From: an uncultured bacterium
GTDB lineage: Bacteria > Patescibacteriota > Minisyncoccia > Phycocordibacterales > Zambryskibacteraceae
Reading direction: 5' to 3'
Length of the DNA: 64,000 bases
NCBI GenBank assembly: GCA_963789635.1
Contig: CAWBLF010000003.1
Location: 140,364-204,363, forward strand
The notes beneath the pieces were generated by a model that made no database searches, was not told the origin of the DNA, and saw only the letters and a list, made by a program, of their open reading frames with translations. Shown one piece after another: positions 9,811-41,534 of the stretch (position 1 is the first letter of the stretch; each line of letters begins with the position of its first letter). The position numbers and the translations under genes are program-made.

Positions 9811-9848
9811 TGCACAAAAAAGACGGACTATTCCGTCTTTTTTGTGCA
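9811..9848. terminator. 17-bp perfect-stem hairpin downstream of rplY
   Basis: tgcacaaaaaagacgga / ctat / tccgtcttttttgtgca. A- and T-runs are built into the stem, so it could terminate in both directions. Confidence 0.6.
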
Positions 9849-13462: not shown

Positions 13463-13502
13463 TTTTTATTGTTTATTTTATTTAATTTGATCTTTATTTT
13501 TT

Positions 13503-14084: not shown

Positions 14085-14094
14085 ATACCTACAT

Positions 14095-14481: not shown

Positions 14482-14523
14482 GAGATATCTGTGATAGAGT
14501 TGTTAAAATTCGAAAGTAGTTAT

Positions 14524-14568
14524 GCCACCTTAGCTGTTTTGGTAGGTATGAGTATTATGAAAAACGTG
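14524..14568 (+). pseudogene. degenerate copy of the tRNA-Thr 5' half
   Basis: gccaccttagctgttttggtag matches tRNA positions 1-22 (gccgccttagctcagttggtag) at 18 of 22. Similarity decays after that. Confidence 0.45.
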
Positions 14569-14624
14569 ATAATGTTGTAAAAATCTTTTATTTTGTTGCT
14601 TGTTATATGTTGTAAGTTAAATTT

Positions 14625-14700
14625 GCCGCCTTAGCTCAGTTGGTAGAGCAACACTTTTGTAAAGTGAAGGTCCTCGGTTCGAGTCCGAGAGGTGGCTCCA
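14625..14700 (+). tRNA. tRNA-Thr (anticodon UGU), CCA encoded
   Basis: Hand-folded cloverleaf. Acceptor stem GCCGCCT/AGGTGGC with one G-U pair. D arm GCTC-AGTTGGTA-GAGC. Anticodon loop ttTGTaa, anticodon at 14658-14660. T arm CTCGG-TTCGAGT-CCGAG. Discriminator T followed by CCA. Confidence 0.9.
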
Positions 14701-14735
14701 AAACAAAAAAACTCCCTGTGGAAGTTTTTTTGTTT
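14701..14735. terminator. A/T-rich hairpin immediately after the tRNA
   Basis: aaacaaaaaaact / agtttttttgttt arms around ccctgtgga. Confidence 0.4.
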
Positions 14736-14864
14736 TGCCATCTCAGCAAGACAGTCAATACTGTCTTGCGTTCGGACTCGAAAGTCGGAGACATATTTCT
14801 TCAGCAGAAGAAATAGTTGAGACGGGGTCGCGAAATTTTGCTGTGATGACAAGCAAAATATTCG

Positions 14865-14888
14865 TGGCCGAATCCGAGAGGTAGCTCA
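14865..14888 (+). repeat. degenerate direct copy of the tRNA-Thr 3' end (possible att-type footprint)
   Basis: cgaatccgagaggtagctca compared with tRNA cgagtccgagaggtggctcca: a 10-nt exact core plus flanks, 17 of 19 matching. Confidence 0.45.
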
Positions 14889-14912
14889 ATAAAGCAAACT
14901 GCTTTAATTGGA

Positions 14913-15611
14913 TTATTTTTGGGTGCTTGTCGCCGATGTAGAGGTGGCATTCTTGGCAGCGTTTTCCTTCTTCCAAACGGCAATTTGCGGTATGGCCTTG
15001 CTTATATCATCTATACTTTGAAACCCATAAAATGTATTATCGTCAATGATAAGGGCAGGTAAATTATTTTCTATCTTATTTATTGAAATCAGTGTTTTAA
15101 TGGCGGAAAGATCAAGATTGTAGTCAAACGAATAAACTCTAAGTTGAGGGTAATCTTCTCTTAGTTTTGTAAGTACGTATCCTTGTTTTTCGCAGTCGGC
15201 ACAGTCTTTACTATAGAAATACAATATAAAAGCATTTTCAGTGCCGCATTTTTGGCTGACCTGCCTCATTAGCAGGAAGTCTTTAATTTCAAGCAAAGAA
15301 TAATATTGTTTGAGGGCCACTACTTGGCTGTCATTTGGACTCCTTGTTTGTTCTTCGTAAGAAAGTTTGTCCCCCAAAGTACCCAGCTCTTCGGAAACAC
15401 TGGTGGGGCCCAATTCTTTGCAGGAAAACTCTTGCAAAAGGGCCGTTTGCACTTCTGAAGCAAGTATATTTGTAGATATTTGATCTTGGATGGACTGGAG
15501 CTCGTCAATTTTCTTTTGGCCGAGCCAGTTTGCCACGAACAAAGCGGTAAAGAAAATTACGGCAGTAATCAAAAAAGCCACAACATATTTTTTTGTATCA
15601 ATTGTTTGCAT
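14913..15611 (-). CDS. membrane-anchored thioredoxin-fold protein (CxxC)
   Basis: N-terminal TM helix. CADC motif within a FYSKDCADCEKQ context typical of thioredoxin-like proteins. Confidence 0.5.
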   Translation of the reverse strand: MQTIDTKKYVVAFLITAVIFFTALFVANWLGQKKIDELQSIQDQISTNILASEVQTALLQEFSCKELGPTSVSEELGTLGDKLSYEEQTRSPNDSQVVALKQYYSLLEIKDFLLMRQVSQKCGTENAFILYFYSKDCADCEKQGYVLTKLREDYPQLRVYSFDYNLDLSAIKTLISINKIENNLPALIIDDNTFYGFQSIDDISKAIPQIAVWKKENAAKNATSTSATSTQK

Positions 15612-15616
15612 AAAAA

Positions 15617-16867
15617 TTATCTCCAGGAAACCTTCTTTGAAAAGACGGTGTTATATATGGCTTTTACGAGCCAGAACGGTACGATGAAACTATATATCGG
15701 AATAAAATAAATAAGATCAAATGACAAACGGAGTCTGCCTTCGGTGATGACTCGGGAAAGCACAATTATGCTCATTGAAAGAAATCCTACAACCAGAGCC
15801 AAAATAACAATTGAGTTGATATTTGTAAAGAAAAAATCAAATTTTAAAAAATTATTTGTACCGAAATCAAGGCCGATTGCTTGGTATCTTTGAAACTCAT
15901 TCATCATTTTTAAAATAAAATCAAAAAGAAAGGCTCCGGTAGAATATATAGCAAAGATGATTGTCAATACGGCTACAGGCAAGGTCAGGAGCCCCAAAGT
16001 GCCGTATTCCTTCTTGAAAAACAAAGATCGGTAGTCAATCGAATTATTTATAAAACCATAAGTCCATCTTACCCTTTGACGGTAAAGCGCTTTTACATTT
16101 TTTGGAGCCACCGTGTGCACCATAGCGTCGTGAGCGTTGACGATTTTGTAATGATTTTTCTGCATACGGAGAGCATATTCCAGGTCTTCGGTGTGGTAGG
16201 CTTCACGATAACCGCCCAGTTTTCTGAATACTTCAGTGCGAAAAATTGAAAATGGTCCAGGAGTCACCCGCAAAGAGCCAAGATATGAAAGCATTTTACA
16301 AATAAATATTCCCCAAACGTATTCTACTGCTTGGACGGTTTGGATGATGTTTTTTGGTTTGTAGACTGCTATTGCCGGAGTAACCGCCATAACATCTTTT
16401 TCTTCGAAATGTTTTATTATGCGCGAAAGAGTTTCCGGTTCGACAAAGGAATCTGCGTCCAAACACCCGACAAAATCGCTGGTTGTCCTTTCCAGAGCGT
16501 AATTCAAAGCTGTGTATTTACCGCCATTTTCTTTTGAGTATATTTCAATCTGAGGATTCTTCTCAAATTGTTTTAAGACATTCATTGTGCCATCGGTACT
16601 TCCGTCGTTGACGATAATAATTTTAAGTTTGTCCTTAGGGTAATTGAGAGCCAATATGGAAAAAAGAGTGTTTGTTACAGTCTTTTCTTCGTTGTAGCAT
16701 GGCACAATGATAGTGACAGACGGCCACCAATCGGCTCTTTTTATCCGTTTTTTTTCTGCAATCATGTGCTCCCGCTTTTCCAAGTAGGTTATGATTAAAA
16801 ACACTTCAAAAAAAAGTGAAATAAACAGGGCAATATAAATGAAAGTGTTTCCGAGGGCTGGGAGCAT
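15617..16867 (-). CDS. family 2 glycosyltransferase, membrane-integrated, processive type
   Basis: IIVPCYNEE, NDGSTDGT, LDADS and the QRVRWTYG (QxxRW) motif, with flanking TM helices. Confidence 0.85.
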   Translation of the reverse strand: MLPALGNTFIYIALFISLFFEVFLIITYLEKREHMIAEKKRIKRADWWPSVTIIVPCYNEEKTVTNTLFSILALNYPKDKLKIIIVNDGSTDGTMNVLKQFEKNPQIEIYSKENGGKYTALNYALERTTSDFVGCLDADSFVEPETLSRIIKHFEEKDVMAVTPAIAVYKPKNIIQTVQAVEYVWGIFICKMLSYLGSLRVTPGPFSIFRTEVFRKLGGYREAYHTEDLEYALRMQKNHYKIVNAHDAMVHTVAPKNVKALYRQRVRWTYGFINNSIDYRSLFFKKEYGTLGLLTLPVAVLTIIFAIYSTGAFLFDFILKMMNEFQRYQAIGLDFGTNNFLKFDFFFTNINSIVILALVVGFLSMSIIVLSRVITEGRLRLSFDLIYFIPIYSFIVPFWLVKAIYNTVFSKKVSWR

Positions 16868-17717: not shown

Positions 17718-18494
17718 ATGAAAGAGCACATGCAAAATGAAAATAGTGATATTGGACCAAAAGTAGATTTGAGAACTGTTTATGATGAAGACGCGAAAAT
17801 TGCGGAAATAGAAAAACGTGAAAATTTTCTTCGCACGGTTGGTTTTTCTGATGAGGAGATTATGAGGTTAAAGGATAATAGGCCGACATTATATGATATT
17901 GTCAATGTTCAAAATACTTTGGATTCGTTGAAACAAATCGGTTTTACCAATCCCGAAAAGATGATCACCAGTTTACCAGCTATTTTGGGCTACAACATCG
18001 AGAACATCAAACAAAAAATCGATGACCTCAAGGTTCTCGGTTTTACCAATCCCGAAAAGATGATCACCAGTTTATCAGCTATTTTGGGCTACAACATCGA
18101 GAACATCGAAAGGAAAATAAGCGCTTTGGAAACAATTTTTAAACTTTACAGTATAAGAGTTGATGTCAAAGAATTTATTGAAAAAGATTTGTTAATATTG
18201 GGTGCAAAAATTGATAAGGTATGGATTATAGCAAGGGCGTTACGTAATCTTGGTATGAATCCAAGTGATATAAACAATGTGTTTCTTTCACGATTACGAT
18301 CATCCAATATAACAGATACCACGGCGGCTCTTACGACCTTGTTGGCGGAGATGAAAAAGGACGTTATTCCAGCGGAAATATTCAAAGCTATTCGTGTTGC
18401 CAAAAAATTGCCTAAAGATGAAAAACAACAGATTATTGAGTCACAGAAAAGTTCTAAGTTGGCAAGACGATACAAACGAGGATATGGCAGTTAG
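17718..18494 (+). CDS. mTERF-like helical repeat protein (hypothetical)
   Basis: Repeats of the form LGFTNPEKMITSLPAILGYNIENIKQKIDDL resemble the mTERF motif (GFs..ei..ii...P.iLg.s.e.nl..ki..L). This is a motif-level call only. Confidence 0.5.
   Translation: MKEHMQNENSDIGPKVDLRTVYDEDAKIAEIEKRENFLRTVGFSDEEIMRLKDNRPTLYDIVNVQNTLDSLKQIGFTNPEKMITSLPAILGYNIENIKQKIDDLKVLGFTNPEKMITSLSAILGYNIENIERKISALETIFKLYSIRVDVKEFIEKDLLILGAKIDKVWIIARALRNLGMNPSDINNVFLSRLRSSNITDTTAALTTLLAEMKKDVIPAEIFKAIRVAKKLPKDEKQQIIESQKSSKLARRYKRGYGS
17949..18118 (+). repeat. 99-bp-period tandem duplication inside the mTERF-like gene
   Basis: 71 nt at 17949-18019 recur at 18048-18118 with one mismatch (tttaccagc versus tttatcagc). 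Confidence 0.9.
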
Positions 18495-18506: not shown

Positions 18507-20897
18507 ATGAAAATATCATACGCATGGCTACAGGATTACTTTGAAAAACCGCTTCCAACTCCGGAAAAAATTTCGGATCTTTTGACTGAGCACGCGTTTG
18601 AAGTGGAATCAATAGACAAAGTGGCTGGCGACAGGGTGCTTGACGTCAAGGTGTTGCCCGACAGGAGTCATGATTGTCTTTGCCATATTGGCATTGCCAG
18701 AGAAGTGGCGCTTCTTGCCAATATCAATCTAAAACCAACTGTCAACAATTCGGAATTGCTTTCAGTGCCCGAATCAAATGTTTTGCGAGTAGAAGTGGAT
18801 GATTCACACCTTTGTAAACGTTTTACCGCGCTTGTAATTGAAAATATAGAAGTAAAGGAAAGTCCAGGTTGGCTCAAAGATCGTCTCAAAGCTATCGGCC
18901 AGCGATCTATAAACAACGTGGTGGATGTCACAAACTATGTGATGTTTGCCATTGGTCAACCGCTCCACGCCTACGACCGTGAACTTTTGAAGGAAGCTGA
19001 TGGTGGATGGAAAATTGTAGTGAGAAAGGCCAATGAAGGTGAGACGCTTTTGGCTCTGGATAACAAAGAATACAGTCTTAGAGGGGGAGAATTGACCATT
19101 GTTGACGGTAATACCGATGGGGTGTTGGGCATTGCGGGCATCAAAGGGGGAAAGGCAAGTGAAATTTCCAAACATACCAAAAACATTATTCTCGAATCCG
19201 CTAATTTTGAACCGGTAAATATTCGCAAGACAGCAAAAGCAATCGGACTTCGCACCGATGCATCCATCCGTTTTGAAAATGAAATCACACCAGAACTTAC
19301 TGTGCTTGCGTTAAAAATAGCTGCGGACCTTCTTTTGGAAATTGCAAATACGGAAGAAACACGGATTGAAGGAATGGTCGATATTTACCCGCGCAAGGCA
19401 TCGTTATTTAAAGTGGGTGTTTCACTTTCTGAAATTCAAAATATTTTGGGTATGGGTATTTCTCAAAAAGAAGTTGAAGATATATTTAAAAGGCGTGGCT
19501 ACACGTGGAGTATGGTTAATCCGCGAGAAATCATATTGACTCTGGCCAGACAGTTGGTGGGAGTGCCATATAAATACGCTTCCAGTGTTCTATATGATGC
19601 ACCCAGAACTTTCGATTGTTCTTCCTTTATCAATTATCTGTATGTGCAATCCGGAGTGGCGTTGCCTAGGATTACCGCGGACCAGTTTGTATTTGGGCAG
19701 TCCATTGAAAAAGATGAACTAAAACCCGGTGATTTGATTTTTTCCCAGTCATCTTCCTCCGATGAAGAAAAGGAATTTACTTTTATAGCCACCGGTGAAA
19801 AAATGCGACAAAAGGTAAAACACACAAAGACATTTGAATTTCTCCCCGGTACCGATGTGCCAGGCGGGGTTGATCACCTTGGCCTTTACGCGGGTGACAA
19901 CAAAGTGATTCATTCATCAAGTGCAAGCCGGGGTGTGGTAGAGGAGTCGCTCGGAGAAACAAAAGCTTTCCAAAATATAGTAGGTTATCGAAGGATGCTT
20001 CAAAGCGAAGAATCCAGATTTGTCGTTGTCGTGCCGGCTGAACGATTGGATTTGCGAATCAAGGAAGATTTGATTGAGGAGATCGGAAGGATTTACGGAT
20101 ATGATAATCTAAAGTCAAAACCTATAAAACTATTCGAAGAAAACGTCGCTGTAAACAAAAAAGAGTATTGGGTAAATTCTTTCAAGAAATTTTTTGTTGA
20201 CGAAGGTTTTTCCGAAGTTATTACATATGCATTTCGCAACAAAGGGGAAGTGGAACTTGCTAACCCCATAGCCAAGGACAAACCATACTTAAGAGCAAAT
20301 CTAAGCGAAGGTTTGTCGGAAGCTCTTGAGTCCAACTCTCACAATATGGAACTTCTGGGTCTTACAGAAGTGAATATTTTTGAAATAGGAAATATTTTTA
20401 CCAAAAAACACGAATATACTTCACTGGCTTTTTCTTCCAACAATCCTGATAAAATCAAAAAAAATATTTTTGAAAAATTTGGTTTTGAAATATCATTTGT
20501 TAGCAACGGTAAAATTTATGAAACAGATTTTGATAAAGTTTTGGAAGAACTTCCTGAATCAAGTAAACCTTTTGAGTATTCCGAAAATGATAATTTAAGT
20601 TTTGTGCCATTTTCGCAATACCCGTTTGTTCTGCGAGACCTAGCGGTGTTTGTGCCGGAAGGAAATAACCAAAACGAAATCATCGACACGGTAAAAGCCG
20701 AGTCATCGGGTTTACTGGTATCTCATCGTCTTTTCGATACGTTTACCAAAGAGTTTCCGGATGGCAAGAAGACTTCTTTTGCGTACAGGTTGGTATTTCA
20801 GTCAAAGGAGAAAACGTTGACCGATGATGAAGTCAACCCGATCATGGAAAAAACAGCCAAAATTTTGAGCAAAAAAGAAGGTTGGCAAGTGAGGTGA
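18507..20897 (+). CDS. pheT: phenylalanine--tRNA ligase beta subunit carrying an inserted NlpC/P60 domain
   Basis: B1 start MKISYAWLQDY, then B3/4, B5, DLIEEIGRIYGYDN, and a C-terminal FDX-ACB-like end. An NlpC/P60-like segment lies at about 19518-20012. Confidence 0.9.
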   Translation: MKISYAWLQDYFEKPLPTPEKISDLLTEHAFEVESIDKVAGDRVLDVKVLPDRSHDCLCHIGIAREVALLANINLKPTVNNSELLSVPESNVLRVEVDDSHLCKRFTALVIENIEVKESPGWLKDRLKAIGQRSINNVVDVTNYVMFAIGQPLHAYDRELLKEADGGWKIVVRKANEGETLLALDNKEYSLRGGELTIVDGNTDGVLGIAGIKGGKASEISKHTKNIILESANFEPVNIRKTAKAIGLRTDASIRFENEITPELTVLALKIAADLLLEIANTEETRIEGMVDIYPRKASLFKVGVSLSEIQNILGMGISQKEVEDIFKRRGYTWSMVNPREIILTLARQLVGVPYKYASSVLYDAPRTFDCSSFINYLYVQSGVALPRITADQFVFGQSIEKDELKPGDLIFSQSSSSDEEKEFTFIATGEKMRQKVKHTKTFEFLPGTDVPGGVDHLGLYAGDNKVIHSSSASRGVVEESLGETKAFQNIVGYRRMLQSEESRFVVVVPAERLDLRIKEDLIEEIGRIYGYDNLKSKPIKLFEENVAVNKKEYWVNSFKKFFVDEGFSEVITYAFRNKGEVELANPIAKDKPYLRANLSEGLSEALESNSHNMELLGLTEVNIFEIGNIFTKKHEYTSLAFSSNNPDKIKKNIFEKFGFEISFVSNGKIYETDFDKVLEELPESSKPFEYSENDNLSFVPFSQYPFVLRDLAVFVPEGNNQNEIIDTVKAESSGLLVSHRLFDTFTKEFPDGKKTSFAYRLVFQSKEKTLTDDEVNPIMEKTAKILSKKEGWQVR

Positions 20898-24765: not shown

Positions 24766-26507
24766 TATTTTTTATTATTTATTTCTTCTTTAAGTTTCTT
24801 TAGAAAATCATCCAAGCTCATGGTTTCCTGTTTGCCGGTGTCACGTGACTCCACGGTGACGGTCTTTGCTTCTACTTCTTTGTCGCCAATGACAATCCAG
24901 TAAGGTATTTTGTTGTTTTTGGCATCGCGAACCTTGCCACCAAGATTTTCATCGGCGTCGTCAAAGACGGCGCGAATACCGCTTTCTCTAAGTGTTTCAA
25001 AAACTTTTTTACCATACTCATTGTGATTCATTCGAACAGGAATAATTTTCACATGCACTGGGGCAAGCCAAAGAGGGAAGGCTCCGGCATAGTGTTCAAT
25101 CAAGATACCAAGGAATCTCTCCGGGGAACCGACGATGGCGCGGTGAATCATCACTGGAGTCTTCTCCGATCCATCGGAGTCGGTATATTTGAGCCCAAAT
25201 CTTTCAGGCATAATAAAATCTAGTTGAATGGTAGAGATCTGCCATTCACGGCCGAGTGAATCTTTGGAAATCAAGTCCATTTTTGGTCCATAGATGGCAG
25301 CTTCACCTTCCGCTCTTATGTAATCGATTTTGTTTTCGACAAGAAGATCTTCAAGAATTTTTTGTGATTTTTCCCAAACCTTTGGTTCTCCAAGATATTT
25401 GTCCGGTTTTTTCGGGTCCCAAAGAGACAGTCTGATTGAATATTTCATGCCGTAAGTTTCCATAGCTTTTTTCACAATACCCAAGACGGCAAGGAACTCA
25501 TCTTTGATTTGGTCTTCTCTGCAGAAGCAATGTCCGTCATCTTGGGCAAAAGCACGTAGGCGGGTGAGACCGTTCAATTCTCCCGGTTTTTCATCTCTAT
25601 ACAGATTGGCAAAGTCGGCAATCCTCACCGGTAAATCTCTGTAGCTTCTTGGCTTTGAAGCATATACCTGGGTGTGGTGCGGACAGTTCATCGGCTTCAA
25701 GTAGTACTCTTCTTTTGTGTAATTGGAAACGACACGGAACATATCTTCCTTGTATTTATCATAATGACCTGAAACCTTGAATAGCTCCGCTTTATTGATG
25801 TTTGGAGTATGAACTTCTTCATAACCAATAGCCGTCTGCAGTTCATTTGAGTATTTTATAATCTCGCGTCTTACAGTAGTGCCTTTTGGGGTATAAATGG
25901 GAAGACCTGGGCCAACGAGCTCGGAAAAAATAAATAAGTCTAGTTCCTTCCCGAGTTTTCTGTGGTCTCTCTTCTTAGCTTCCTCTTGCTGTTTTTCGTA
26001 TTCAACCAATTCTTCCTTAGTGTTGAAAGCCAGACCATAAATACGAGTGAGCATTTTGTTATTCTCGTCACCACGCCAGTATGCCCCGGCTAGTCGCGTC
26101 AATTTGAAGGCGTCCATGGAAACATCTTTCATGTTTTCCACATGTCCGCCACGGCAGAGGTCTGTAAATTTGCCGGAAGTATAAAAAGTTATCGGTTCTC
26201 CTTTTGATAAAATTTCATCAATTAGTTCAAGCTTGTACGGATTGTGTTTAAAAAATTTCTTTGCTTCTTCTGGTGAAACATCTTTTTTTTCAAAGCTTGT
26301 CCAAGTGTTGGAAAGTTTTTTCATTTTCTTTTCTATGTCTTTGAGCGCGTTGTCCGGCAGGGGAGAAGAGAATTCAAAATCATAATAAAAGCCGTTATCA
26401 ATGGCTGGGCCGATAGAATTTAGAGTATCAGGGTAAAGATCTAGCACGGCAGCCGCCAAAAGGTGGGCTAGGGAGTGACGTAGATGTTCTAGTTTTATGT
26501 CAGACAT
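24765..26507 (-). CDS. thrS: threonine--tRNA ligase (no N-terminal TGS domain)
   Basis: LRHS.AHLLA start of the second additional domain, class II core motifs (FRDE..G...GL.R...F.QDD.H, HRA..GS.ERF), and a C-terminal anticodon-binding domain. Confidence 0.95.
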   Translation of the reverse strand: MSDIKLEHLRHSLAHLLAAAVLDLYPDTLNSIGPAIDNGFYYDFEFSSPLPDNALKDIEKKMKKLSNTWTSFEKKDVSPEEAKKFFKHNPYKLELIDEILSKGEPITFYTSGKFTDLCRGGHVENMKDVSMDAFKLTRLAGAYWRGDENNKMLTRIYGLAFNTKEELVEYEKQQEEAKKRDHRKLGKELDLFIFSELVGPGLPIYTPKGTTVRREIIKYSNELQTAIGYEEVHTPNINKAELFKVSGHYDKYKEDMFRVVSNYTKEEYYLKPMNCPHHTQVYASKPRSYRDLPVRIADFANLYRDEKPGELNGLTRLRAFAQDDGHCFCREDQIKDEFLAVLGIVKKAMETYGMKYSIRLSLWDPKKPDKYLGEPKVWEKSQKILEDLLVENKIDYIRAEGEAAIYGPKMDLISKDSLGREWQISTIQLDFIMPERFGLKYTDSDGSEKTPVMIHRAIVGSPERFLGILIEHYAGAFPLWLAPVHVKIIPVRMNHNEYGKKVFETLRESGIRAVFDDADENLGGKVRDAKNNKIPYWIVIGDKEVEAKTVTVESRDTGKQETMSLDDFLKKLKEEINNKK

Positions 26508-26559: not shown

Positions 26560-26990
26560 AAGGCTAAGTCTCGAATGTGATTATGATTGTAAATTCCCGA
26601 GGAATCGCCCTAAAATAGGTCACCGAGGACTTAGCAAAAGTATTTTTCTGGTGAAAAATCTTTTTCCCATACCTCGTCCCGCCTTTGCGGGACTCCGGTC
26701 TTGCGAAGCTCCAAGTATTCGCTTCTCACCTTAGTTTCAAATTCTCAAGGCTAAGCCTCGATGCCTTAGGTCACTGACGATAAATTCCCGAGGAATCGCC
26801 TAAATACAGGCCCTCTAATTGTGTATCCGAATAGGTCACCGAGGACTTAGCCTTAGTTTCAAATTCTCAAGGCTAAGCCTCGATGCCTTAGGTCACTGAC
26901 GATAAATTCCCGAGGAATCGCCCTAAAATAGGTCACCGAGGACTTTAAGCCTCGATGCCTAAAGGCAAGGCGAAACCTCGAGAATTTACA
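26560..26990. repeat. largest array of the CGAGG/CCTCG-core modular repeats (R4), including one 151-bp element and a 72-bp unit repeated at 122-bp period
   Basis: Modules taggtcaccgaggactta, aaattcccgaggaatcgcc, ccttagtttcaaattctcaaggctaagcctcgatgcctta and ggcgaaacctcgagaattt, in several copies. 26729-26800 equals 26851-26922. Confidence 0.9.
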
Positions 26991-31458: not shown

Positions 31459-31478
31459 GTTTAATCTTTTAACTTTTT

Positions 31479-31752
31479 TGGTCACCGATTTAATTCCCGA
31501 GCAATCGCCTTAATACAGACAATTTTAGGTCACCGAGGACTTAGCAAAAGTATTTTTCTGGTGAAAAATCTTTTTCCCATACCTCGTCCCGCCTTTGCGG
31601 GACTCCGGTCTTGCGAAGCTCCAAGTATTCGCTTCTCACCTTAGTTTCAAATTCTCAAGGCTAAGCCTCGATGCCTAAAATACAGGCCCTCAAGGCTAAG
31701 CCTCGATATCTAAATGCAAGGCGAAACCTCGAGAATTTAAGGCTGAGCCTAG
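31479..31752. repeat. CGAGG/CCTCG-core modular repeat cluster (R5) containing the second 151-bp element
   Basis: 31526-31676 is identical to 26616-26766. Flanked by aattcccgagcaatcgcc, tacaggccctcaaggctaagcctcgat and ggcgaaacctcgagaatttaaggc modules. Confidence 0.9.
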
Positions 31753-31802
31753 AATACATTGTAACTTGTGTTTTCTGGCTCATCAGGTATACTCAATTCA
31801 CT

Positions 31803-32049: not shown

Positions 32050-32964
32050 ATGGCAAACCGGCACCTTGCAAGATCAGTGGTAATGCAGACACTCTTCGAA
32101 TGGGACTTCGCAAAACGATCCCGTGAAGAGGCATTTGGCATACTCAAACGAAACAAAGATGAGTTTGCTCCAGGGGTTACCGAAACATCCTTTATGGACG
32201 GTCTTTTGGAATCCGTTTTGGACAAGCAAAAGGACATTGACAGCATCATTACCAAAGCGGCACCCGATTGGCCAATTGAAAAAATATCAGTGATTGATCG
32301 CAATATTTTGCGATTGGGTCTTTCGGAATTGCTCTTCTCCGACGCAGAACAAGTGCCACCAAAAGTGGCTATCAACGAAGCCATTGAGCTAGCAAAATCA
32401 TTCGGTGGAGAAACATCGGGTAAATTTGTAAACGGAGTCCTCGGCGCAGTCTACAAAGAAATGGGGGAACCCGGCAAAGACGAAGTTTCCACCAAGAAAA
32501 AAACAATCAAGAATATTCCAGATGACAAGCTGACCATCGAAGACCTAGGTGGGGCTCTGGTTTATTCTATTTATGAAGGTGTCATATATTTGGCTTTGGT
32601 TCATGATGTCTTCGGTCACTGGACTCTTTCAAAAGGAAAGCTGGAAAATGGCGAGTCGGTGAAAGACGGGACAACACGAGAGATAAAAGAAGAGATTGGT
32701 ATTGATATAAATATTGAAGAAGATTTGGGGACAAACGAATACATTGCATTTCATCCGGAGAAAGGTAAGCTGAAAAAAAGAGTTCATTACTTTCTTGCAA
32801 AAGCGGACTTTCAGCCACTGACACTTGAAGCTCACGAGTCTCGTGGCGGATTGACTGACGCGCAATGGTTCCCGGTAGAAAAAATCGGCGAACTCAATTT
32901 TTATGACGATATCATGCCGTTGGTGACCAAAGGCATTGAAATGATGGGAAAGAAGGAAGTTTAA
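32050..32964 (+). CDS. nusB: NusB antitermination factor fused to a C-terminal NUDIX hydrolase domain
   Basis: The first ~145 aa carry NusB motifs (R..A.Q.LF..DF, DRNILRLG..EL, INEAIELAK.FG). The C-terminal part carries a Nudix box, GKLENGESVKDGTTREIKEEIGI. Confidence 0.8.
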   Translation: MANRHLARSVVMQTLFEWDFAKRSREEAFGILKRNKDEFAPGVTETSFMDGLLESVLDKQKDIDSIITKAAPDWPIEKISVIDRNILRLGLSELLFSDAEQVPPKVAINEAIELAKSFGGETSGKFVNGVLGAVYKEMGEPGKDEVSTKKKTIKNIPDDKLTIEDLGGALVYSIYEGVIYLALVHDVFGHWTLSKGKLENGESVKDGTTREIKEEIGIDINIEEDLGTNEYIAFHPEKGKLKKRVHYFLAKADFQPLTLEAHESRGGLTDAQWFPVEKIGELNFYDDIMPLVTKGIEMMGKKEV

Positions 32965-32993: not shown

Positions 32994-33368
32994 ATGGCCA
33001 CAAGACTAGAGAATCTAAAAATATATCAGATGGCGCGTGAGCTGGAACTTCGGGTTTTTGAATTAACGAAAAGTTTTCCAACCGCAGAAAATTTTAGAAG
33101 CATAGATCAATTGCGCCGTTCGTCTTCATCTGTTACCAATAACATTGCTGAATCTTATAACAAGAAGTCAATAAAGGATAAAATAAGAATTATTAATGAT
33201 ATTGTTAAGGGTGAAGCAAACGAAACAAGGTCTAATCTTGAAATGTTTCAAGAAAAGAAGTTTTTCAAAGACCAAAATCTGATTGATAGATACACAGAAC
33301 TCATAAAAGCAGTCAGCGGATATATAGCATTTCTCAAAACTTCTCAACTTAACAACTTATCAACTTAA
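32994..33368 (+). CDS. four-helix-bundle protein (23S rRNA intervening-sequence protein / S23p / Avd-like family)
   Basis: 124 aa with L.IYQ.A.EL...V..LT..FP and DQLRRSSSSV.NNIAE motifs. Confidence 0.85.
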   Translation: MATRLENLKIYQMARELELRVFELTKSFPTAENFRSIDQLRRSSSSVTNNIAESYNKKSIKDKIRIINDIVKGEANETRSNLEMFQEKKFFKDQNLIDRYTELIKAVSGYIAFLKTSQLNNLST

Positions 33369-33378: not shown

Positions 33379-34075
33379 ATGGACGGTTTTAATCAATTTG
33401 AAGAACGAATAGGTGTGATTTTCGAAAATAAAAACTTGCTCAAGCAGGCGTTTGTTCATCGTTCATATTTAAATGAAAACAAAGAATTTCCTCTAGGCCA
33501 CAATGAACGTCTGGAGTTCCTCGGAGACGCAGTTCTTGAACTGGTGATTACCGACTATCTTTACACCAAATACCCCGAGAAAAACGAAGGAGATATGACA
33601 TCGCTTCGCTCTGCCTTGGTCAACGCCACCGCTCTTCATAAAGTGGGTGCCAGATATTGGTATCAATGACCTACTTCTGCTCTCCCGAGGTGAATCTAAG
33701 GACCTTGGGCGTGCTCGTCAGTACATTCTTGCCAATACAATGGAGGCATTGATTGGCGCCATTTACCTTGACCGTGGATATGATATGGCCAAGAAATTTA
33801 TTTATGAATTCATAACTCCGCTTTTGGACAAAGTGATTGAAGACGAAAGCTGGATTGACTCCAAGAGTTTATTCCAAGAAAAAGCCCAAGATCATGCAGG
33901 GGTAACTCCCGCATATCAAACCTTGAAAGAAACTGGTCCCGACCACGACAAGCATTTCACAGTCGGCGTGTATTTGAAAAATGAACTCATTGCTCAAGGC
34001 GAAGGGGATTCCAAACAGGAAGCGGAGCAGGCAGCAGCTCACAATGCTCTCAAGGCAAAAGGTTGGAATAATTGA
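33379..34075 (+). CDS. rnc: ribonuclease III, interrupted by an apparent 1-nt insertion (+1 frame change) near 33650-33652
   Basis: Frame 1 gives NERLEFLGDAVLEL ... LRSALVNATALHKVGA. Frame 2 continues DIGINDLLLLSRGE ... MEALIGAIYLD plus a C-terminal dsRBD. Removing one base from gcca restores VGADIGIN. Confidence 0.85.
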
Positions 34076-34161: not shown

Positions 34162-36432
34162 ATGCTGCTTAAATCTATAGAAATATCCGGATTCAAGTCT
34201 TTTGCCAAGAAAGATTCTCTCACATTCAATACGCCAATTTCGGCAATTGTCGGTCCAAACGGTAGTGGAAAGTCCAACGTTGCCGAGGCATTTCGCTTCG
34301 TGCTAGGCGAGCAATCTATCAAGAGTCTTCGCGGTAAAAAGGGTGAAGACCTTATATTCAATGGTGCCGGGGAAGGGGCAAGGGCCAACAGAGCTTCGGT
34401 CAAGGTGACATTTGATAATTCCCAGAAAATTTTTGCTTTGGATTTTCCAGAGGTGCAGATAGAGCGTGTGGTTCATCGTGATGGCATCAATGAATATTTG
34501 ATAAACGGCTCACAAGTGCGTTTGCGCGACATCATTGAGCTTCTAGCGGGGGCGCACATAGGCTCATCCGGTCATCACATAATTTCTCAAGGTGAAGCAG
34601 ACAGAATTCTCAATAGCTCTCTGCGTGAACGCAGGGCGATGCTCGAAGACGCTCTTGGTCTAAAAATCTATCAATATAAGCGGGCAGAGAGTGAGCGTAA
34701 ACTAGATAAGACATTAGAAAATATTCAGTCTGTCGAAAGTCTACGCAAGGAAATTGCTCCACATCTTCGTTTTCTGAAAAAACAAGTTGAGAAGATGGAA
34801 AAAGCAGTGAGTATGAAGGATGAACTCAAGAACCTTTCTCGCGAATATCTCAAACGTGAGGATACTTTCATACAAGATTCAAAAAAAGCCATTATGGATG
34901 AACGGAAGCCTCTTTCCGACAAAAAATCCAACCTTGAGAGTGAAATGGCCAAGGCCAAAGAAGTATTGGAGTCGTCGAAGAACAAAGACGAAAAAAGTGA
35001 CAAAATAATTGCGCTTGAGACAAGTATTCGCGATGCGCGAAGCGAGAAAGACCGATTACTCCAAGAGATGGGCAAACTTGAAGGAGAGATTGCATCCGAG
35101 CGCAGAATTCTTGCCAAGCAGAAAGAGATTCTTTCTTCAAATGAACACAAGACGGTTGCGCTTCGAGATGTGGAAGATCTTGTTAAGAAGATAGACGTGT
35201 CAATTGTAGAAGCCGAAAAGAGTGTTGATATTTCTTTTGTAAAAAACACGCTCAACATTTTGCGTTCCACCCTGAATGATTTTATTGGCAGTAAAAAAGA
35301 GGAGACCAATGACACGGTTGTGAAAGAATCAGAAGCCGCTCTTGTTGCACTCGGTAAGACAAAGACGGAAACTGAAACAAAACTTTCAGTAATCAAGACA
35401 AAGGAAGAAGAGCTTCAAAGAGAGTATCAAAGTCTTCAAAAAGACATAGAAAAAGCCAAGGATTCTAGCCGTGATGCGGAAAAAGCACTGTTTCGCATAA
35501 TGTCAGAACAAAACGAGGTATCGGGAGCATTGGCGCTCTTACTTGCACGTGAAGAGGGTCTGCGTACTGTAGAAGAAGATTTCAAAAGGGAACTGGAAGA
35601 GTGCGCAATGCTTGCGGGGAGAGGGGTGTTGGACTTTAAATCCTTCGCTCTCGCTCAGGACAAACCCCCCGAGGTCACGAGAGGTTCGCAGGAAGAACGC
35701 AGACGAAATATTGAGAAAATCAAGATTCGTCTTGAAGAGGCAGGACTTTCTGGAAGTGGAGAAATAATGAAAGAGTTTCAGGAAACATCGGAGCGCGATG
35801 CATTTTTGGAACGGGAGCTGACAGATCTTGATAAATCAGCAGAATCTCTCCACCAGCTTATCGTGGAGCTGGGCGAAAAACTTGATATTGAATTTAAGGA
35901 AGGAATAACAAAAATTAATAAACAATTTGGCGAATTTTTTGCGTTGATGTTTGGTGGAGGCAAAGCCATACTCAATGTCATCAAAGAAAAAAAGAGAATA
36001 AAGAAAGAGACAGACGATCTACTACTGACAACTGACAATGAACAAGAAGAAGAAATAGTTGAGGACGAGGCAACCGAAGATGGCATAGATATTGAAGTGT
36101 CGTTGCCAAGGAAGAAAATCAAAGGATTGGCCATGCTTTCTGGTGGGGAGAGAGCTCTCACATCTATAGCGCTTCTTTTTGCAATATCGCAAGTAAATCC
36201 ACCGCCATTTATCATTCTTGATGAAACGGATGCGGCGCTCGATGAGGCAAATTCCAGAAAATACGGCGATATGGTGGAAAACTTGGCCAAATATTCTCAA
36301 CTAATTTTGATTACGCACAATCGCGAGACGATGTCGCGAGCAGGTGTGATTTATGGAGTGACCATGGGAAGTGCTGGGGTTTCCAAAATTCTTTCTATTC
36401 AATTTGAAGAGGCGGTAGAAGTGGCCAAGTAG
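34162..36432 (+). CDS. smc: SMC-family chromosome partition ATPase, unusually short (756 aa), no recognisable hinge
   Basis: Walker A GPNGSGKSN, signature LSGGERALT, Walker B FIILDETDAALD. A long coiled coil lies between the head halves. Confidence 0.8.
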   Translation: MLLKSIEISGFKSFAKKDSLTFNTPISAIVGPNGSGKSNVAEAFRFVLGEQSIKSLRGKKGEDLIFNGAGEGARANRASVKVTFDNSQKIFALDFPEVQIERVVHRDGINEYLINGSQVRLRDIIELLAGAHIGSSGHHIISQGEADRILNSSLRERRAMLEDALGLKIYQYKRAESERKLDKTLENIQSVESLRKEIAPHLRFLKKQVEKMEKAVSMKDELKNLSREYLKREDTFIQDSKKAIMDERKPLSDKKSNLESEMAKAKEVLESSKNKDEKSDKIIALETSIRDARSEKDRLLQEMGKLEGEIASERRILAKQKEILSSNEHKTVALRDVEDLVKKIDVSIVEAEKSVDISFVKNTLNILRSTLNDFIGSKKEETNDTVVKESEAALVALGKTKTETETKLSVIKTKEEELQREYQSLQKDIEKAKDSSRDAEKALFRIMSEQNEVSGALALLLAREEGLRTVEEDFKRELEECAMLAGRGVLDFKSFALAQDKPPEVTRGSQEERRRNIEKIKIRLEEAGLSGSGEIMKEFQETSERDAFLERELTDLDKSAESLHQLIVELGEKLDIEFKEGITKINKQFGEFFALMFGGGKAILNVIKEKKRIKKETDDLLLTTDNEQEEEIVEDEATEDGIDIEVSLPRKKIKGLAMLSGGERALTSIALLFAISQVNPPPFIILDETDAALDEANSRKYGDMVENLAKYSQLILITHNRETMSRAGVIYGVTMGSAGVSKILSIQFEEAVEVAK

Positions 36433-36440
36433 GTCGACAA

Positions 36441-36590
36441 TAGGTCACCGAGGACTTAAATTCCCAAGGAATTGCTTTAATACAGGCCCTCAATTTTAGG
36501 TCACCGAGGACTTAAATTCCCGAGGAATCGCCTTAATACAGGCCCTCAAGGCGAAACCTCGAGAATTTAAGGCTAAGCCTCGATGCCTTA
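36441..36590. repeat. CGAGG/CCTCG-core repeats (R6): one half element (36441-36493) plus one full 95-nt nested hairpin element (36496-36590)
   Basis: ttaggtcaccgaggactta-aattcccgaggaatcgcc-ttaatacaggccctcaa-ggcgaaacctcgagaatt-taaggctaagcctcgatgcctta. Confidence 0.9.
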
Positions 36591-36648: not shown

Positions 36649-38574
36649 CTAAACAAAAACAAAATCAAGAATTCTTTTGTCCAAATCTGCGGCAATTAAT
36701 TTTATGCGGACTTTATCGCCCAGAGTGTATTTCTTTTTGGTTGCAGTACCTACCACCGCATAGTTCTTTTGGTCTAGAACATAATTGTCATCGGTCATAT
36801 TGCGGAATCGCACCATTCCCTCGGCTTTGGTTTCAGTTTCTTCCACATAGACGCCCCACTCTGACACACCGGAAATAGTAGCGTCAAATTCCTTGCCTAT
36901 GTTGCCAAGCATAAACTCAACTTGTTTGTATTTGATTGAAGCGCGTTCTGCATCAGAAGCGGCAATTTCTTTTTGCGTTGCATCATCTGCCATTCGCTGG
37001 TAGGTAGCCATTTCGTCGGGATCAACTTTACCTTTATTTAGAAATCTGTAGAGCAATCTATGCACAAGTAAGTCTGGATATCTGCGAATGGGTGAAGTGA
37101 AGTGAGTGTAGTAGGTGAAGCCCAGACCAAAGTGGCCAATATTGCGAGTAGAATAAACCGCTTTCGCCATTGAGCGAATAGCCGCTGTTTTGATAAGAGA
37201 TTCCTCCGGCTTTCCCTCCACTTGCTTAAGCAGTTTGTTCATATCAGCAGCCGTGATTTCGCCATCTTCGGCATCAAGGTCGTAGCCAAGTGCTTTGATA
37301 AAAACCCCCAAGTTCATTATTTTTTCTTTATCAGGCTCATCGTGAATACGATAAATAAAAGGACTTTTTGATTTGGTATTTTCAATTTCTTTATACATAT
37401 ATTCCGCTACCGAGCGGTTGGCCAAAAGCATATATTCTTCAATCATCTTGTTCGTATCCTGACGGATTTTTTTGTAAACACGAATGGGCTTGCCATCGGC
37501 ATCCAGTTCAAACTTCACCTCGTCGGTTTCAAACTCAATGGCGCCGTTTTCAAATTTTTCTGCCTGAAGTTTCTTTCCAATTTGATTCATTATATTTAAC
37601 TCGTCATAGTAGAGACCTTTCTTGGCATCTAGAATAGCTTGCGCTTCTTCGTATGAAAATCTTTTATCAGAGTGTATGACTGTCTTGCCGTACCACCTGT
37701 CGTGAACCTTTCCATTGTCATCAATGACAACAACAGTGGAGAAAGTAAAGCGTTCAACATCTTCATTCAAACTGCATAAGTCATTGGACAAAATTTCCGG
37801 CAACATCGGAATAGTGCGGTCCACAAGATAGACAGATGTTCCACGTTTGCGAGCCTCTTTGTCCAGAATTGTGCCTGGTGTGACGTAGTGAGATACATCG
37901 GCTATATGTATTCCAATTTCATATTTGCCATCAGATAATTTCTTGAAAGACAAAGCGTCATCAAAGTCTTTGGCATCTGCCGGGTCGATGGTGAAAGTAA
38001 GGGTATCACGGAAGTCTTTGCGTTTGGCAACCTCGTTTGCCCAGTCGGCTTGTTTTTCCTTGGCAATGCGCGCAGCGTCCTCTTCTACTTCTTTAGGAAA
38101 TTCATCTTCGAATCCTCGTTCAAGGATGATGGCTTCCATTTCCACATTGTGGATACCTTTACGCCCGAGTACCTTAACGACCTTACCCTCCGGACTTTTC
38201 ATGGGGTCTTTCCAGCTGGTCATTTCCACCTGAACTTTATCTCCGTCCTTGGCTCCTTTGGAGTTTGAAACGTGCACAAATATGTCTTTGTACATACGCC
38301 TGTCGTCGGGTTTGAGAAAAAAGAAATCTTTTGTTTGCGTCAAAGTTCCTACAAACTGTATTTTGGCGCGCTTGATTATTTTTATGACCTCTCCTTGTCG
38401 TCTTATATTCTCCTGAACAGGCAAAATTTTTATCTCCACCTCATCATTATTTAATGCGGTTTTGAGGAGCGGTGTTTGAATTTCTATATCATTGGGTAAT
38501 CCTTCCACAGTGAAATAGCCGACTCCTCGGCCACTGACAGTTATTGATCCCGTGTATGTCTTTTTTTCCTCCAT
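36649..38574 (-). CDS. rnr: ribonuclease R (RNB-family 3'-5' exoribonuclease)
   Basis: 641 aa. Cold-shock/OB N-terminus, RNB core (DP.DAKDFDDALS, RSMAKAVYS, GHFGLG...YTHFTSPIRRYPDL) and a C-terminal S1 domain. Confidence 0.9.
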   Translation of the reverse strand: MEEKKTYTGSITVSGRGVGYFTVEGLPNDIEIQTPLLKTALNNDEVEIKILPVQENIRRQGEVIKIIKRAKIQFVGTLTQTKDFFFLKPDDRRMYKDIFVHVSNSKGAKDGDKVQVEMTSWKDPMKSPEGKVVKVLGRKGIHNVEMEAIILERGFEDEFPKEVEEDAARIAKEKQADWANEVAKRKDFRDTLTFTIDPADAKDFDDALSFKKLSDGKYEIGIHIADVSHYVTPGTILDKEARKRGTSVYLVDRTIPMLPEILSNDLCSLNEDVERFTFSTVVVIDDNGKVHDRWYGKTVIHSDKRFSYEEAQAILDAKKGLYYDELNIMNQIGKKLQAEKFENGAIEFETDEVKFELDADGKPIRVYKKIRQDTNKMIEEYMLLANRSVAEYMYKEIENTKSKSPFIYRIHDEPDKEKIMNLGVFIKALGYDLDAEDGEITAADMNKLLKQVEGKPEESLIKTAAIRSMAKAVYSTRNIGHFGLGFTYYTHFTSPIRRYPDLLVHRLLYRFLNKGKVDPDEMATYQRMADDATQKEIAASDAERASIKYKQVEFMLGNIGKEFDATISGVSEWGVYVEETETKAEGMVRFRNMTDDNYVLDQKNYAVVGTATKKKYTLGDKVRIKLIAADLDKRILDFVFV

Positions 38575-38652: not shown

Positions 38653-38661
38653 GTGCACCAC

Positions 38662-39138
38662 ATGTTAAAGATTCGATTACAGAGGGTGGGACGCAAACAC
38701 GAACCGACGTTTCGTGTCGTTTTGACTGACTCAAAAAATAGCACCAAGAGTGGGCGTTTTCATGAAGTTCTTGGCTCTTATGACCCTCGTAAAAAGACTG
38801 AAGTTTTTGAGGGAGAACGTATCAAAGAATGGATGGGGAAGGGTGCTAAAGTTTCCGGTACTGTGCACAATCTCCTTGTTTCTCACAAAATAATTTCAGG
38901 GAAGAAAATAAACGTTCTTCCTAAGAAGTCACCGATATCAAAAGTCAAAGTTGCAGATGAAGTTCAGGCAGTTGATAAGGTGGCCGTAGACAAGGGGGAA
39001 ACTGAAGCCATCGCGAAAGAAGTCGTAGCGGAGGCAGCGCCATCGGAAGTTACGGCAGAGCCGGTAGCCAATCCTGAAATAAAAGACGAAGTTGTTCCAG
39101 CTCCAGAGCTTCCGGTTACTCCCGAAGGAACTGAATAG
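38662..39138 (+). CDS. rpsP: 30S ribosomal protein S16 with a long acidic/proline-rich C-terminal extension
   Basis: MLKIRLQRVGRKHEPTFRVV start, and YDPR. Confidence 0.9.
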   Translation: MLKIRLQRVGRKHEPTFRVVLTDSKNSTKSGRFHEVLGSYDPRKKTEVFEGERIKEWMGKGAKVSGTVHNLLVSHKIISGKKINVLPKKSPISKVKVADEVQAVDKVAVDKGETEAIAKEVVAEAAPSEVTAEPVANPEIKDEVVPAPELPVTPEGTE

Positions 39139-39146
39139 ATTATCGG

Positions 39147-39385
39147 TAGGTCACAGAACAACGCAAAATTAAATTTTAGGTCACCATTAAATTCCCGATT
39201 AGGTCACCGAGGACTTAAATTCCCGAGGAATCGCCTTAATACAGGCCCTCAAGGCGAAACCTCGAGAATTTAAAGCTAAGCCTCGATGCCTTAGGTCACT
39301 GACAATAAATTCCCGAGGAATCGCCTTAATACAGACAATTTTAGGTCACCGACTTAGTTTCAAATTCTCAAGGCTAAGTCTCGGA
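39147..39385. repeat. CGAGG/CCTCG-core repeats (R7): several partial modules plus one full 95-nt element (39199-39293)
   Basis: 39199-39293 differs from 36496-36590 at one base. Additional taggtcac starts at 39147, 39177, 39292 and 39342. Confidence 0.9.
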
Positions 39386-39479
39386 TTCAGCTCAATTTTT
39401 GTTTGATATTTTGGCTAAATATATTTATACTAAAGTTGTACAGACAGAATGATTAATAATAGATAACGCGCGACACAAT

Positions 39480-39818
39480 ATGGAAAAAGATGTACTTTTT
39501 TTGGAACAGGTGGTTAAAGCATTGGTAGATTATCCTGATGATGTGAAGATTAACAGAGCGGTAGATGAAATGGGGGTGTTGATCACTCTCGATGTGAACT
39601 CTGCAGATATGGGCAAAATTATCGGTCGTTCCGGTAATACCGCCAAAGCTATTCGTACTCTACTTAGAGTAGTGGGTATGAAGAACAACGCAAGGGTTAA
39701 CTTAAAAATCAACGAGCCAGAGGGAGGAAGGGGTCCTGGTATGGGAAGTGGTGTCGGAACCGGCAGTTCTTCTCAAATGAAAGATTTTGATCAGGCTGTT
39801 GAGGATTTGAATCTTTAG
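39480..39818 (+). CDS. KH-domain RNA-binding protein (UPF0109 / KhpA-like) with a glycine-rich tail
   Basis: The motif V...D.GK.IGR.G.TA.AIRT.L, in the conserved position after rpsP. Confidence 0.8.
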   Translation: MEKDVLFLEQVVKALVDYPDDVKINRAVDEMGVLITLDVNSADMGKIIGRSGNTAKAIRTLLRVVGMKNNARVNLKINEPEGGRGPGMGSGVGTGSSSQMKDFDQAVEDLNL

Positions 39819-39851
39819 CCAACAATTAGTTCGAATAGTAGGCGCGAAAAA

Positions 39852-39886
39852 CGTCACGGACCTAAACTGAGTCCGTGACGTTTTGA
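39852..39886 (+). terminator. rho-independent terminator after the KH-domain gene
   Basis: cgtcacggac / ctaaactga / gtccgtgacg, followed by ttttgattt. Confidence 0.75.
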
Positions 39887-40834: not shown

Positions 40835-41215
40835 GTGATGTCTTACTCAAATCCGACCCGAGCAGCGAAAAAGCTTGTCAAGGAACACCCGGACGAAGTT
40901 CTCGATGTGCTCCTTGAACACCCGTTCTGGCCTGCGCAGATTAAACCGGACATTCTCTACACAAGGCGCAGCGACGATACTGATGGGTATGATAATACTA
41001 TTGCTGTCGACATCGGTAGCGGTATTCGTGCAGGGGATGCCTATGTAGAAGTGCAATCGAAGTTTGATCCTGACAGCATTACGATTGGGGTGCACTGTTT
41101 CCGAAGTGGTATTGGTGGCGGAGGGAGTCCCAGGGTCCGAAACGCCCTTCTCTTTCTCGCCCTAGCCATTGAACTCGACAACCGTGACTATCCTCAAAAT
41201 GCTACCCCAACCTAA
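40835..41215 (+). CDS. hypothetical protein (orphan, locally G+C-rich)
   Basis: 126-aa ORF. A hand count of its first 100 nt gives 53 G+C, clearly above the neighbouring trmD. No family recognised. A hairpin aatgctacccc/ggggtagcatt spans its stop codon. Confidence 0.4.
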   Translation: MMSYSNPTRAAKKLVKEHPDEVLDVLLEHPFWPAQIKPDILYTRRSDDTDGYDNTIAVDIGSGIRAGDAYVEVQSKFDPDSITIGVHCFRSGIGGGGSPRVRNALLFLALAIELDNRDYPQNATPT

Positions 41216-41534
41216 GGGGTAGCATTTTCATTGGGTCTGGATTACGAAATTGTGTTAACCAGAAGCAAGGTAGGTATGGCTGTGGATAACCTCTTGACTC
41301 ATAGCAAACGGCGAGTACAATGACCACCACTTCGGCAAGATTGAGTTATGGCTATAAAACGAAGTTAACAGTTGCGAGTTAACGCCCTTCGACAGGTTCT
41401 CCTCGAACCTCTCTCAGGACAAGTTTTTAATTCTTGCTCACTAAGATTTAACAGTTTCATATTTTTATTAGTACCTCTGGAAACAGAGACGGAATTTTGT
41501 TGTTTATTCTTTTTTATAAATATAAAGCACTACC

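Follow-up and report, generated by a model that had tools for sequence, protein, structure and literature searches.

The 95-nt element found twice in this DNA appears to be one arrangement within a REP/BIME- or MITE-like family of small palindromic repeats that is intergenic and lineage specific, a reading to which we give a probability of roughly 70%. We analyzed a continuous stretch of 64,000 nt (the window), in which the units of the family are seen alone, nested both ways in each other's loops, truncated, and recombined. This is an ordinary kind of selfish or structural repeat, belonging to a well-known repeat class; what is unusual is the host, a Zambryskibacteria-like member of the CPR. 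CPR/Patescibacteria genomes are regarded as streamlined, and fast-evolving repeat families are present even there. Here, a recent burst of nested units hit the spacers of the core genes dnaE, thrS, smc, rnr, rpsP, and rpmF. The window has 42% G+C, and all genes identified in it are housekeeping genes, with the nearest named homologs of RNase R and ThrRS in Candidatus Zambryskibacteria and Paceibacterota. Its GC skew is positive throughout, which places it in one replichore.

The 95-nt composite

Two 95-nt stretches, at 36496-36590 and 39199-39293, agree at 94 of 95 positions; the single difference is a G in copy 1 and an A in copy 2 at element position 76. The preliminary description saw in each a long imperfect hairpin built from two concentric inverted repeats, and this is borne out. 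Read directly from the sequence, the inner arms pair at 16 of 19 positions around a 17-nt loop (the mismatches are one C.A and two A.A), the outer arms pair in the TA/GG/CA/CGAGG/CTTA blocks that had been described, and the 95-mer folds on either strand. RNA folding gives −37.3 kcal/mol on the + strand (z −4.8) and −51.5 kcal/mol on the − strand (z −8.2), with none of 200 shuffles as stable. The − strand is much more stable because the C.A mismatches of the 95-mer turn into G.U there. DNA parameters give −22.5 (+) and −25.3 (−) kcal/mol. We considered and rejected strand-specific selection on an RNA: the − strand bias is not general (7 C.A versus 4 G.T over seven units), it is small with DNA parameters, and orientation is independent of transcription.

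36496-36590, + strand: 95-mer copy 1, flanked by the stops of smc and rnr, which are convergent
36497-36513: Y-left arm of copy 1
36513-36532: X-left arm of copy 1
36533-36549: X loop of copy 1
36550-36569: X-right arm of copy 1
36570-36590: W-right remnant and Y-right arm of copy 1
39199-39293, + strand: 95-mer copy 2, after the rpsP stop and before the predicted khpA promoter
36441-36496, + strand: tandem copy of the composite's left 56 nt, comprising Y-left, X-left, and X loop

As first described, the copies follow smc and rpsP: copy 1 lies between smc (34162-36432, +) and the RNase R gene (36649-38574, −), and copy 2 between rpsP (38653-39138, +) and the gene for a KhpA-type KH protein (39480-39818, +), whose predicted promoter is TTGATA-17-TATACT at 39403-39431. 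The 36441-36496 duplicate has no right arms of its own and carries three transitions in its X-left (36457). A 36-nt probe from the 95-mer finds three sites in the window, versus 0.00 expected from shuffles. The element had been called archetypal and present twice. There are indeed two near-identical copies, but pieces of the 95-mer occur in at least 13 further places in the window, and, far from being an archetype, the element combines two homologous palindromic units that are nested but separable.

Units X and Y

The 95-mer consists of a unit X placed within a unit Y. X (about 56 nt) reads TAAATTCCCGAGGAATCGCC, loop TTAATACAGGCCCTCAA, GGCGAAACCTCGAGAATTTA, and Y (33-59 nt) reads TAGGTCACCGAGGACTTAGCCTT, loop AGTTTCAAATTCTC, AAGGCTAAGCCTCGATGCCTTA. 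The two units follow a common plan. The 5' half runs from an outer stem through CGAGG, a bulged A, an inner stem, and GCCTTA to the loop, and the 3' half from CTCAAGGC through the inner stem and CCTCG to the outer stem, with TA bounding both units. X and Y can be aligned end to end, sharing the motifs CGAGG, GCCTTA, CTCAAGGC, and CCTCG, and their inner stems show a compensated difference, TAG/CTA versus TCG/CGA. From this full-length alignment with shared motifs, X and Y are subfamilies of one family. Every arm is in itself a small palindrome, e.g., ATTCC-CGA-GGAAT in X-left and AGGC-TAA-GCCT in Y-right. Other examples in the window show the units outside the 95-mer:

26832-26890, + strand: stand-alone Y (TAGGTCACCGAGGACTTAGCCTT, loop AGTTTCAAATTCTC, AAGGCTAAGCCTCGATGCCTTA)
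26903-26988, + strand: inverse nest, a minimal Y0 hairpin (26929-26961, 33 nt) within an X loop
2611-2668, − strand (opposite orientation): Y-like unit with a compensated outer stem, GGTTAC...GATAAC
4645-4700, + strand: diverged Y-like unit with a different loop, AAGAGGACTTACC

The z-scores of the X, Y, and 95-mer hairpins range from −4.8 to −9.2. The stand-alone Y folds as RNA at −26.6 kcal/mol on the + strand (z −5.8) and −31.2 kcal/mol on the − strand (z −6.6), and the − strand of the inverse nest at −52 kcal/mol (z −9.2). The diverged unit at 4645-4700 folds more weakly (z −3.0 on + and −1.8 on −). A separate hairpin, CCGAGGC...GCCTCGG at 2577-2609, adjoins the 2611-2668 unit.

Allowing up to three mismatches, the window holds 7 Y-left, 7 Y-right, 8 X-left, and 4 X-right arms, together with 5 X loops, 3 copies of M8, and 2 of M7 (modules placed below). 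X-right occurs exactly once per cluster, so that four copies stand against eight of X-left, a surplus that follows from tandem duplications (56 nt in cluster 3, 122 nt in cluster 1) and from reused composite junctions. The octamer TAGGTCAC has all 13 of its occurrences in the window on the + strand, versus 0.8 expected. Unit starts read TAGG, and the base before may be A, T, G, or C; GTAGG is found at 39146 only.

Four mosaic clusters

All composite pieces belong to four mosaic clusters, at about 26.6, 31.5, 36.5, and 39.2 kb, within 13 kb of one another. Each is placed within the interval from a stop codon to the next predicted promoter or to a convergent gene, and all copies are extragenic except for an X-right in cluster 1 that overlaps the dnaE stop codon. 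The units in the clusters are truncated and recombined, forming mosaics of up to 431 nt.

26560-26990, + strand: cluster 1, a 431-nt mosaic from the dnaE stop to the predicted thrS promoter, both genes on the − strand
31478-31762, + strand: cluster 2, after the rnhB stop and before the promoter region of rpmF
36439-36590: cluster 3, between the convergent smc and rnr; a half unit plus the 95-mer
39140-39400: cluster 4, from rpsP to khpA; contains 95-mer copy 2
39140-39198, + strand: truncated Y-left fragments upstream of copy 2, with TAGGTCAC at 39147 and 39177
39292-39400, + strand: downstream of copy 2; M8 (TAGGTCACTGACAATA), X-left, X-loop remnant, truncated Y-left, W core
26636-26729, + strand: M7, a 94-nt insert in the left inner arm of a Y; an identical copy is found at 31546-31639

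Cluster 1 contains three X-left, three Y-left, and three Y-right arms, two copies of M8, and one of M7, and it includes a 122-nt tandem duplication. As a whole it forms a single fold, closed by its first X-left (26590-26609) and its only X-right (26969-26988). Cluster 2 is an older, third copy of the Y-around-X arrangement, made of a truncated Y-left (GGTCACCGA), an X-left with two mismatches, an X-right, and a decayed Y-right. Two inserts interrupt this copy, a 167-nt block (a Y carrying the 94-nt M7) and a 26-nt X/Y chimera. Once these two inserts are removed, 83 of the 97 columns of its outer frame are identical to the 95-mer, and thus the Y-around-X composite was copied to three loci. A 7-nt AATACAG is duplicated around the cluster 2 insert. 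In cluster 4, the 39292-39400 segment also has the right arm (AAGGCTAAGTCTCGGATTCAG) of an older Y2 unit, which is intact in the relative L124.

Both M7 copies lie in a 151-nt exact repeat common to clusters 1 and 2; recent copying is therefore seen both here (151/151) and in the 95-mer (94/95). M7 is made of three hairpins, has no terminal inverted repeat and a target duplication of 0-1 nt, and found no match in Rfam or, with a probe from its hairpin, in viral contigs; it could be a separate small mobile element. Its − strand holds a 32-codon open frame. M7 also matches codons ~74-81 of thrS in frame over 21 of 23 nt (26265-26287), and we set aside a possible origin as a thrS fragment, as nothing aligns beyond this stretch.

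The family breaks short-read assemblies inside clusters: the independent Logan assembly of run ERR12035936 (contigs L001 and L133) breaks within clusters 2 and 4, and no second assembly spans them. Proteins of the window retrieved only contigs of this run, whose sequence is identical to that of the window. Could the clusters be artefacts, i.e., collapsed or chimeric repeats of a metagenome-assembled genome? We regard this as extremely improbable. The Logan contigs are 100% identical to clusters 2 and 4 over the right-hand part of each, related single units occupy the same spacers in three independently assembled relatives, and the unique flanks of each cluster are collinear with the relatives.

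Conservation of pairing

The preliminary description proposed aligning further copies for compensatory changes, whose absence would count against a structural role. We used seven Y-like units from the window and from two close relatives (L124 and L126), with 500 shuffles for comparison. In these units, 85.4% of cells are in standard pairs, and two-sided changes affect five pairs (eight cells), all at outer-stem and core positions. The pairing values were reached by only 1-2 of the 500 shuffles, and slid controls were clearly lower than the true register, save for the partial +1 register. Pairing is thus kept through sequence change, and the structural claim withstands the comparison. X offers no informative variation for this test.

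CGAGG...CCTCG is the most conserved part of all subfamilies, and the same core is found in otherwise unrelated small hairpins (2577-2609 of the window, and in L126). It is tempting to see here binding sites for a protein that recognizes CCGAGG/CCTCGG in a hairpin or duplex, such as a termination factor or a nucleoid protein, or else a DNA-uptake signal in the form of inverted pairs. The window even encodes a protein with an mTERF domain (17718-18494), unusual in bacteria, as a candidate termination factor. However, nothing in the sequence appears to link the mTERF protein to these sites. As a genome-wide signal, CGAGG had to be rejected since it is not enriched: CGAGG and CCTCG occur 53 and 40 times in the window, compared with a median count of 41 among 5-mers of equal composition, and outside the clusters they are unpaired. 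In addition, the core of one L126 unit has changed to TGAGG/CCTCA with pairing kept, which favors structure over sequence. Altogether, we judge protein-binding sites to be a very improbable explanation.

A short conserved core flanked by variable sequence also recalls guide-RNA arrays, whether CRISPR-like or TIGR-Tas-like. TIGR-Tas loci occur in CPR bacteria, the group to which this host belongs; their arrays either alternate two repeats of 8-12 nt, set apart by 9-nt spacers in 36-nt units, or consist of box C/D stem-loops, and they adjoin a gene for a Nop-domain Tas protein (PMC12045711). M8 has CTGA and TGACGA, which bear a faint resemblance to box D and box C. In contrast to such arrays, the spacing of the cores is irregular (13, 16, 21, 26, 33, 36, 38, and 51 nt), the would-be spacers are identical between loci, and the neighbors are housekeeping genes, with no Nop-domain or Cas neighbor among the window ORFs examined. 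This explanation is already effectively refuted.

The same spacers in relatives

We compared roughly 120 kb of relatives' loci, around the orthologs of RNase R, ThrRS, and transketolase. Close relatives are those with RNase R 91-94% identical (L124 and L126), and the more distant ones are at about 80-85%. In the close relatives, the Y-like units are single and diverged, their stems have changed in a compensatory way, and one unit is flipped in orientation. Between smc and rnr, L126 has one diverged Y, the unit in which CGAGG/CCTCG has become TGAGG/CCTCA, with TA on the right only. At the same place, L124, the 91% relative, has a Y core in the opposite orientation within another perfect 13-bp palindrome. 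This enclosing palindrome, AAACGAAACCTTTT...AAAAGGTTTCGTT (12008-12072 of L124), suggests that the L124 genome has a further, different palindromic unit. Between rpsP and khpA, L124 has one intact Y2, of which cluster 4 of the window retains the right half only, and L126 has two minimal CCGAGGTT...AACCTCGG hairpins. The rnhB/rpmF spacer of L126 has one Y-like unit.

More distant relatives have canonical terminators (A tract, hairpin, T tract) at the 3' ends of smc, rpsP, and rnhB. The dnaE-thrS spacer is 36 nt long in one of them (L136), with no hairpin, versus 478 nt in the window. None of the modules is found in the loci of the ~80-85% relatives, and X is not found in any relative examined. 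This indicates that the family is young and lineage specific, and the sequences compared point to an expansion of X and of the TAGGTCAC-type Y that is specific to this genome. For the near identity of copies beside unrelated genes, recent spread or strong selection had been proposed; recent spread is the part that stands, given that the family is missing from the same spacers in the ~80-85% relatives (protein identity). Reciprocal nesting of X and Y, together with relatives in simpler ancestral states, makes this a compact case for the spread of small palindromes. In one 80% relative, L129 (GCA_964646785.1), there are gene-free stretches of 2.7 kb (13403-16075) and 1.25 kb (2552-3806), which contain none of the window's modules.

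The comparison also bears on whether the units are primarily functional RNA hairpins, terminators or 3' stabilizers, that replaced the canonical ones and are kept by selection, their similarity arising by gene conversion or by descent from one terminator hairpin. We consider this possible but, on the whole, unlikely. In each case, the cluster is located exactly between a stop codon on one side and the next predicted promoter or a convergent stop on the other, the relatives' canonical terminators occupy positions at which the window has no other strong hairpin, and stems change in a compensatory way. The minimal CCGAGGTT hairpins of L126 are followed by a T-rich tail, and one Y0 (− strand, downstream of dnaE) passes a lax terminator scan. 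As in intrinsic terminators, then, there is a stable hairpin at the same genomic position. However, the units have no U tract after the hairpin, and the 95-mer is called as a terminator on neither strand; they differ further from terminators in their 30-40-bp stems, long loops, stacked copies, and sequence shared between loci. All units face one way whatever the strand of the flanking genes, and it is thus not the same strand of the units that is transcribed in every cluster. A single hairpin would suffice, whereas the clusters contain as many as a dozen half-units, truncated arms, and an unrelated 94-nt insert. Canonical bidirectional terminators are still used elsewhere in the window (9811-9848, 39848-39884, and 41196-41228), each with an A tract, a perfect 13-17-bp stem, and a T tract. 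Finally, a relative does with dnaE and thrS 36 nt apart and hairpin-free, and the absence of the family from near relatives would be left unexplained.

Comparison with known repeat systems

The family has much in common with the REP, REPIN, and BIME repeats of proteobacteria, which are likewise short, extragenic, imperfect palindromes (Bertels and Rainey 2011, PMC3116915; Delihas 2011, PMC3184786). The likeness extends to placement, often between convergent genes or at 3' ends; to several related classes in one genome; to compensatory changes in the hairpins; and to mosaic clusters that also contain further short motifs and higher-order repeats in tandem. The arms and Y0 (33 nt) are of REP size (~20-40 nt), with 7-8 copies per arm in 64 kb. 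X, Y, and the 95-mer each have the form of a REPIN, an inverted doublet with a spacer that folds as a long hairpin whose arms are themselves small palindromes, and, as in REPINs, a singlet (the X-left at 36457, with three transitions) is more decayed than the doublets. Like BIMEs, the clusters combine palindromic units with other motifs in a mosaic (X and Y arms, X loop, W, M8, and M7). In contrast to REPs, however, no RAYT gene is seen within the 64 kb, the 5' GTAG head is not conserved (units start with TAGG), the G+C content is moderate, and the host belongs to the CPR and has a very small genome. Whereas E. coli BIMEs alternate in orientation, the units here all point one way, and they are nested inside each other's loops instead of following an alternating tandem order.

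MITEs such as Correia/NEMIS and RUP are comparable in being non-coding and intergenic, with terminal inverted repeats and long, stable RNA hairpins (PMC3184786). The units here have inverted repeats around a non-coding core of less than ~400 bp and hold no ORF, they end in TA on both sides, and they are polymorphic for presence or absence among close relatives. They differ from MITEs in size (33-59 nt versus about 100-400 nt), in their many truncated and chimeric copies, and in that a target-site duplication is not demonstrable and no parent IS with matching ends was found across the window and the ~120 kb of loci from relatives. Correia and RUP elements duplicate TA. X, Y, and W each have TA on either side, yet this dinucleotide belongs to the conserved repeat; as a target-site duplication it is suggestive yet indistinguishable from a conserved repeat end, and we did not adopt that interpretation.

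Searches for recorded relatives of the family were negative. Rfam at the gathering threshold returned only a tRNA in the window and nothing for the repeats, and a permissive scan gave only sub-threshold matches to miRNA precursors, i.e., generic hairpins. BLAST of cluster 1 against plasmid and phage collections found no match, and the W core, Y-left, and the M7 hairpin had none among viral contigs. A 20-nt X-left probe had three matches in JGI metagenome contigs, all by chance and in coding sequence, so the family is absent there. The 15-nt loop AATACAGGCCCTCAA is too short a pattern: it gave 119 single chance matches to genome contigs of unrelated taxa. No transposase, RAYT, or recombinase is seen among the larger ORFs of the window (scanned, or annotated on Logan contigs), and specifically no RAYT-type Y1 transposase (PF01797) among the window ORFs examined, which leave aside a few that match no Pfam family or lay outside the scan. 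Our literature searches turned up no report of REP-, BIME-, or MITE-like repeats from CPR/Patescibacteria.

How the family may spread

On the REP/BIME or MITE reading, both single units and whole composites, the 95-mer among them, would be copied into single-stranded or TA-rich loops of existing hairpins, preferentially into loops of their own kind and at tolerated intergenic positions, by an enzyme supplied in trans and encoded outside the window. Clusters would next grow by tandem duplication (56 nt and 122 nt) and by recombination at the motifs common to X and Y. Spacings of 56 and 122 nt and reused composite junctions speak for such growth, and these duplications and junctions mean that recombination or slippage, more than transposition, could account for most of the spread. 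The TA unit ends and the AATACAG duplication are a hint, in the sequence, at transposition; no clean pair of filled and empty sites was found among the compared spacers.

Once inserted, the units would be transcribed within 3' untranslated or intercistronic RNA, where very stable hairpins would arise at positions at which relatives carry canonical intrinsic terminators, here lost. By analogy with REP/BIME, the units probably act as 3'-end barriers or weak terminators. Such an effect would be a side effect that makes the units tolerated, not the reason for their existence. The units may have replaced canonical terminators, with a possible effect on gene expression.

Nesting of this kind has one further parallel. 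The small dispersed repeats (SDRs) of heterocyst-forming cyanobacteria are very small palindromic units, of 21-27 nt, that are inserted within one another and within other repeats and have a patchy, lineage-specific distribution. They are not known to have a transposase. The likeness lies in these features, and the two families are not known to be related in sequence. As a long shot, the family could be a CPR counterpart of the SDRs, in which ~35-60-nt hairpins copy themselves into hairpin loops, including those of canonical terminators, without a dedicated transposase. Copying in this sub-megabase genome might then proceed by, e.g., a single-strand, hairpin-templated, or RNA-mediated route. 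The units would replace terminators, and a frameshifted RNase III would be connected, relaxing the cost of long double-stranded RNA in transcripts.

Other observations

Several genes of the window deserve separate mention. The RNase III gene (33379-34075) is split into two overlapping ORFs of 96 and 142 amino acids by an extra A at ~33652 (GCC[A]GATATT), compared with the intact 231-amino-acid genes of L126 and L124. This is either a real frameshift or an assembly error; the Logan contig L133 ends at 33602, short of the extra A. The split is of interest because long hairpin RNAs are substrates of RNase III. The mTERF-domain protein (258 amino acids; Pfam E = 5e-11) is encoded between pheS and pheT, and its gene has a 99-nt internal tandem repeat (17938-18019 and 18037-18118, 94% identical). 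The adjacent PheRS beta subunit (18507-20897) has an NlpC/P60 peptidase domain inserted at residues 352-415.

Two genes (865-1236 and 32994-33368) encode "23S rRNA intervening sequence proteins" (PF05635), a family that includes the Avd proteins of DGRs; no reverse transcriptase was seen in the window. A fused NusB-NUDIX protein of 304 amino acids (32050-32964) is kept in all relatives examined. The release factor 2 gene prfB (11674-12653) consists of two overlapping ORFs, as expected from programmed +1 frameshifting.
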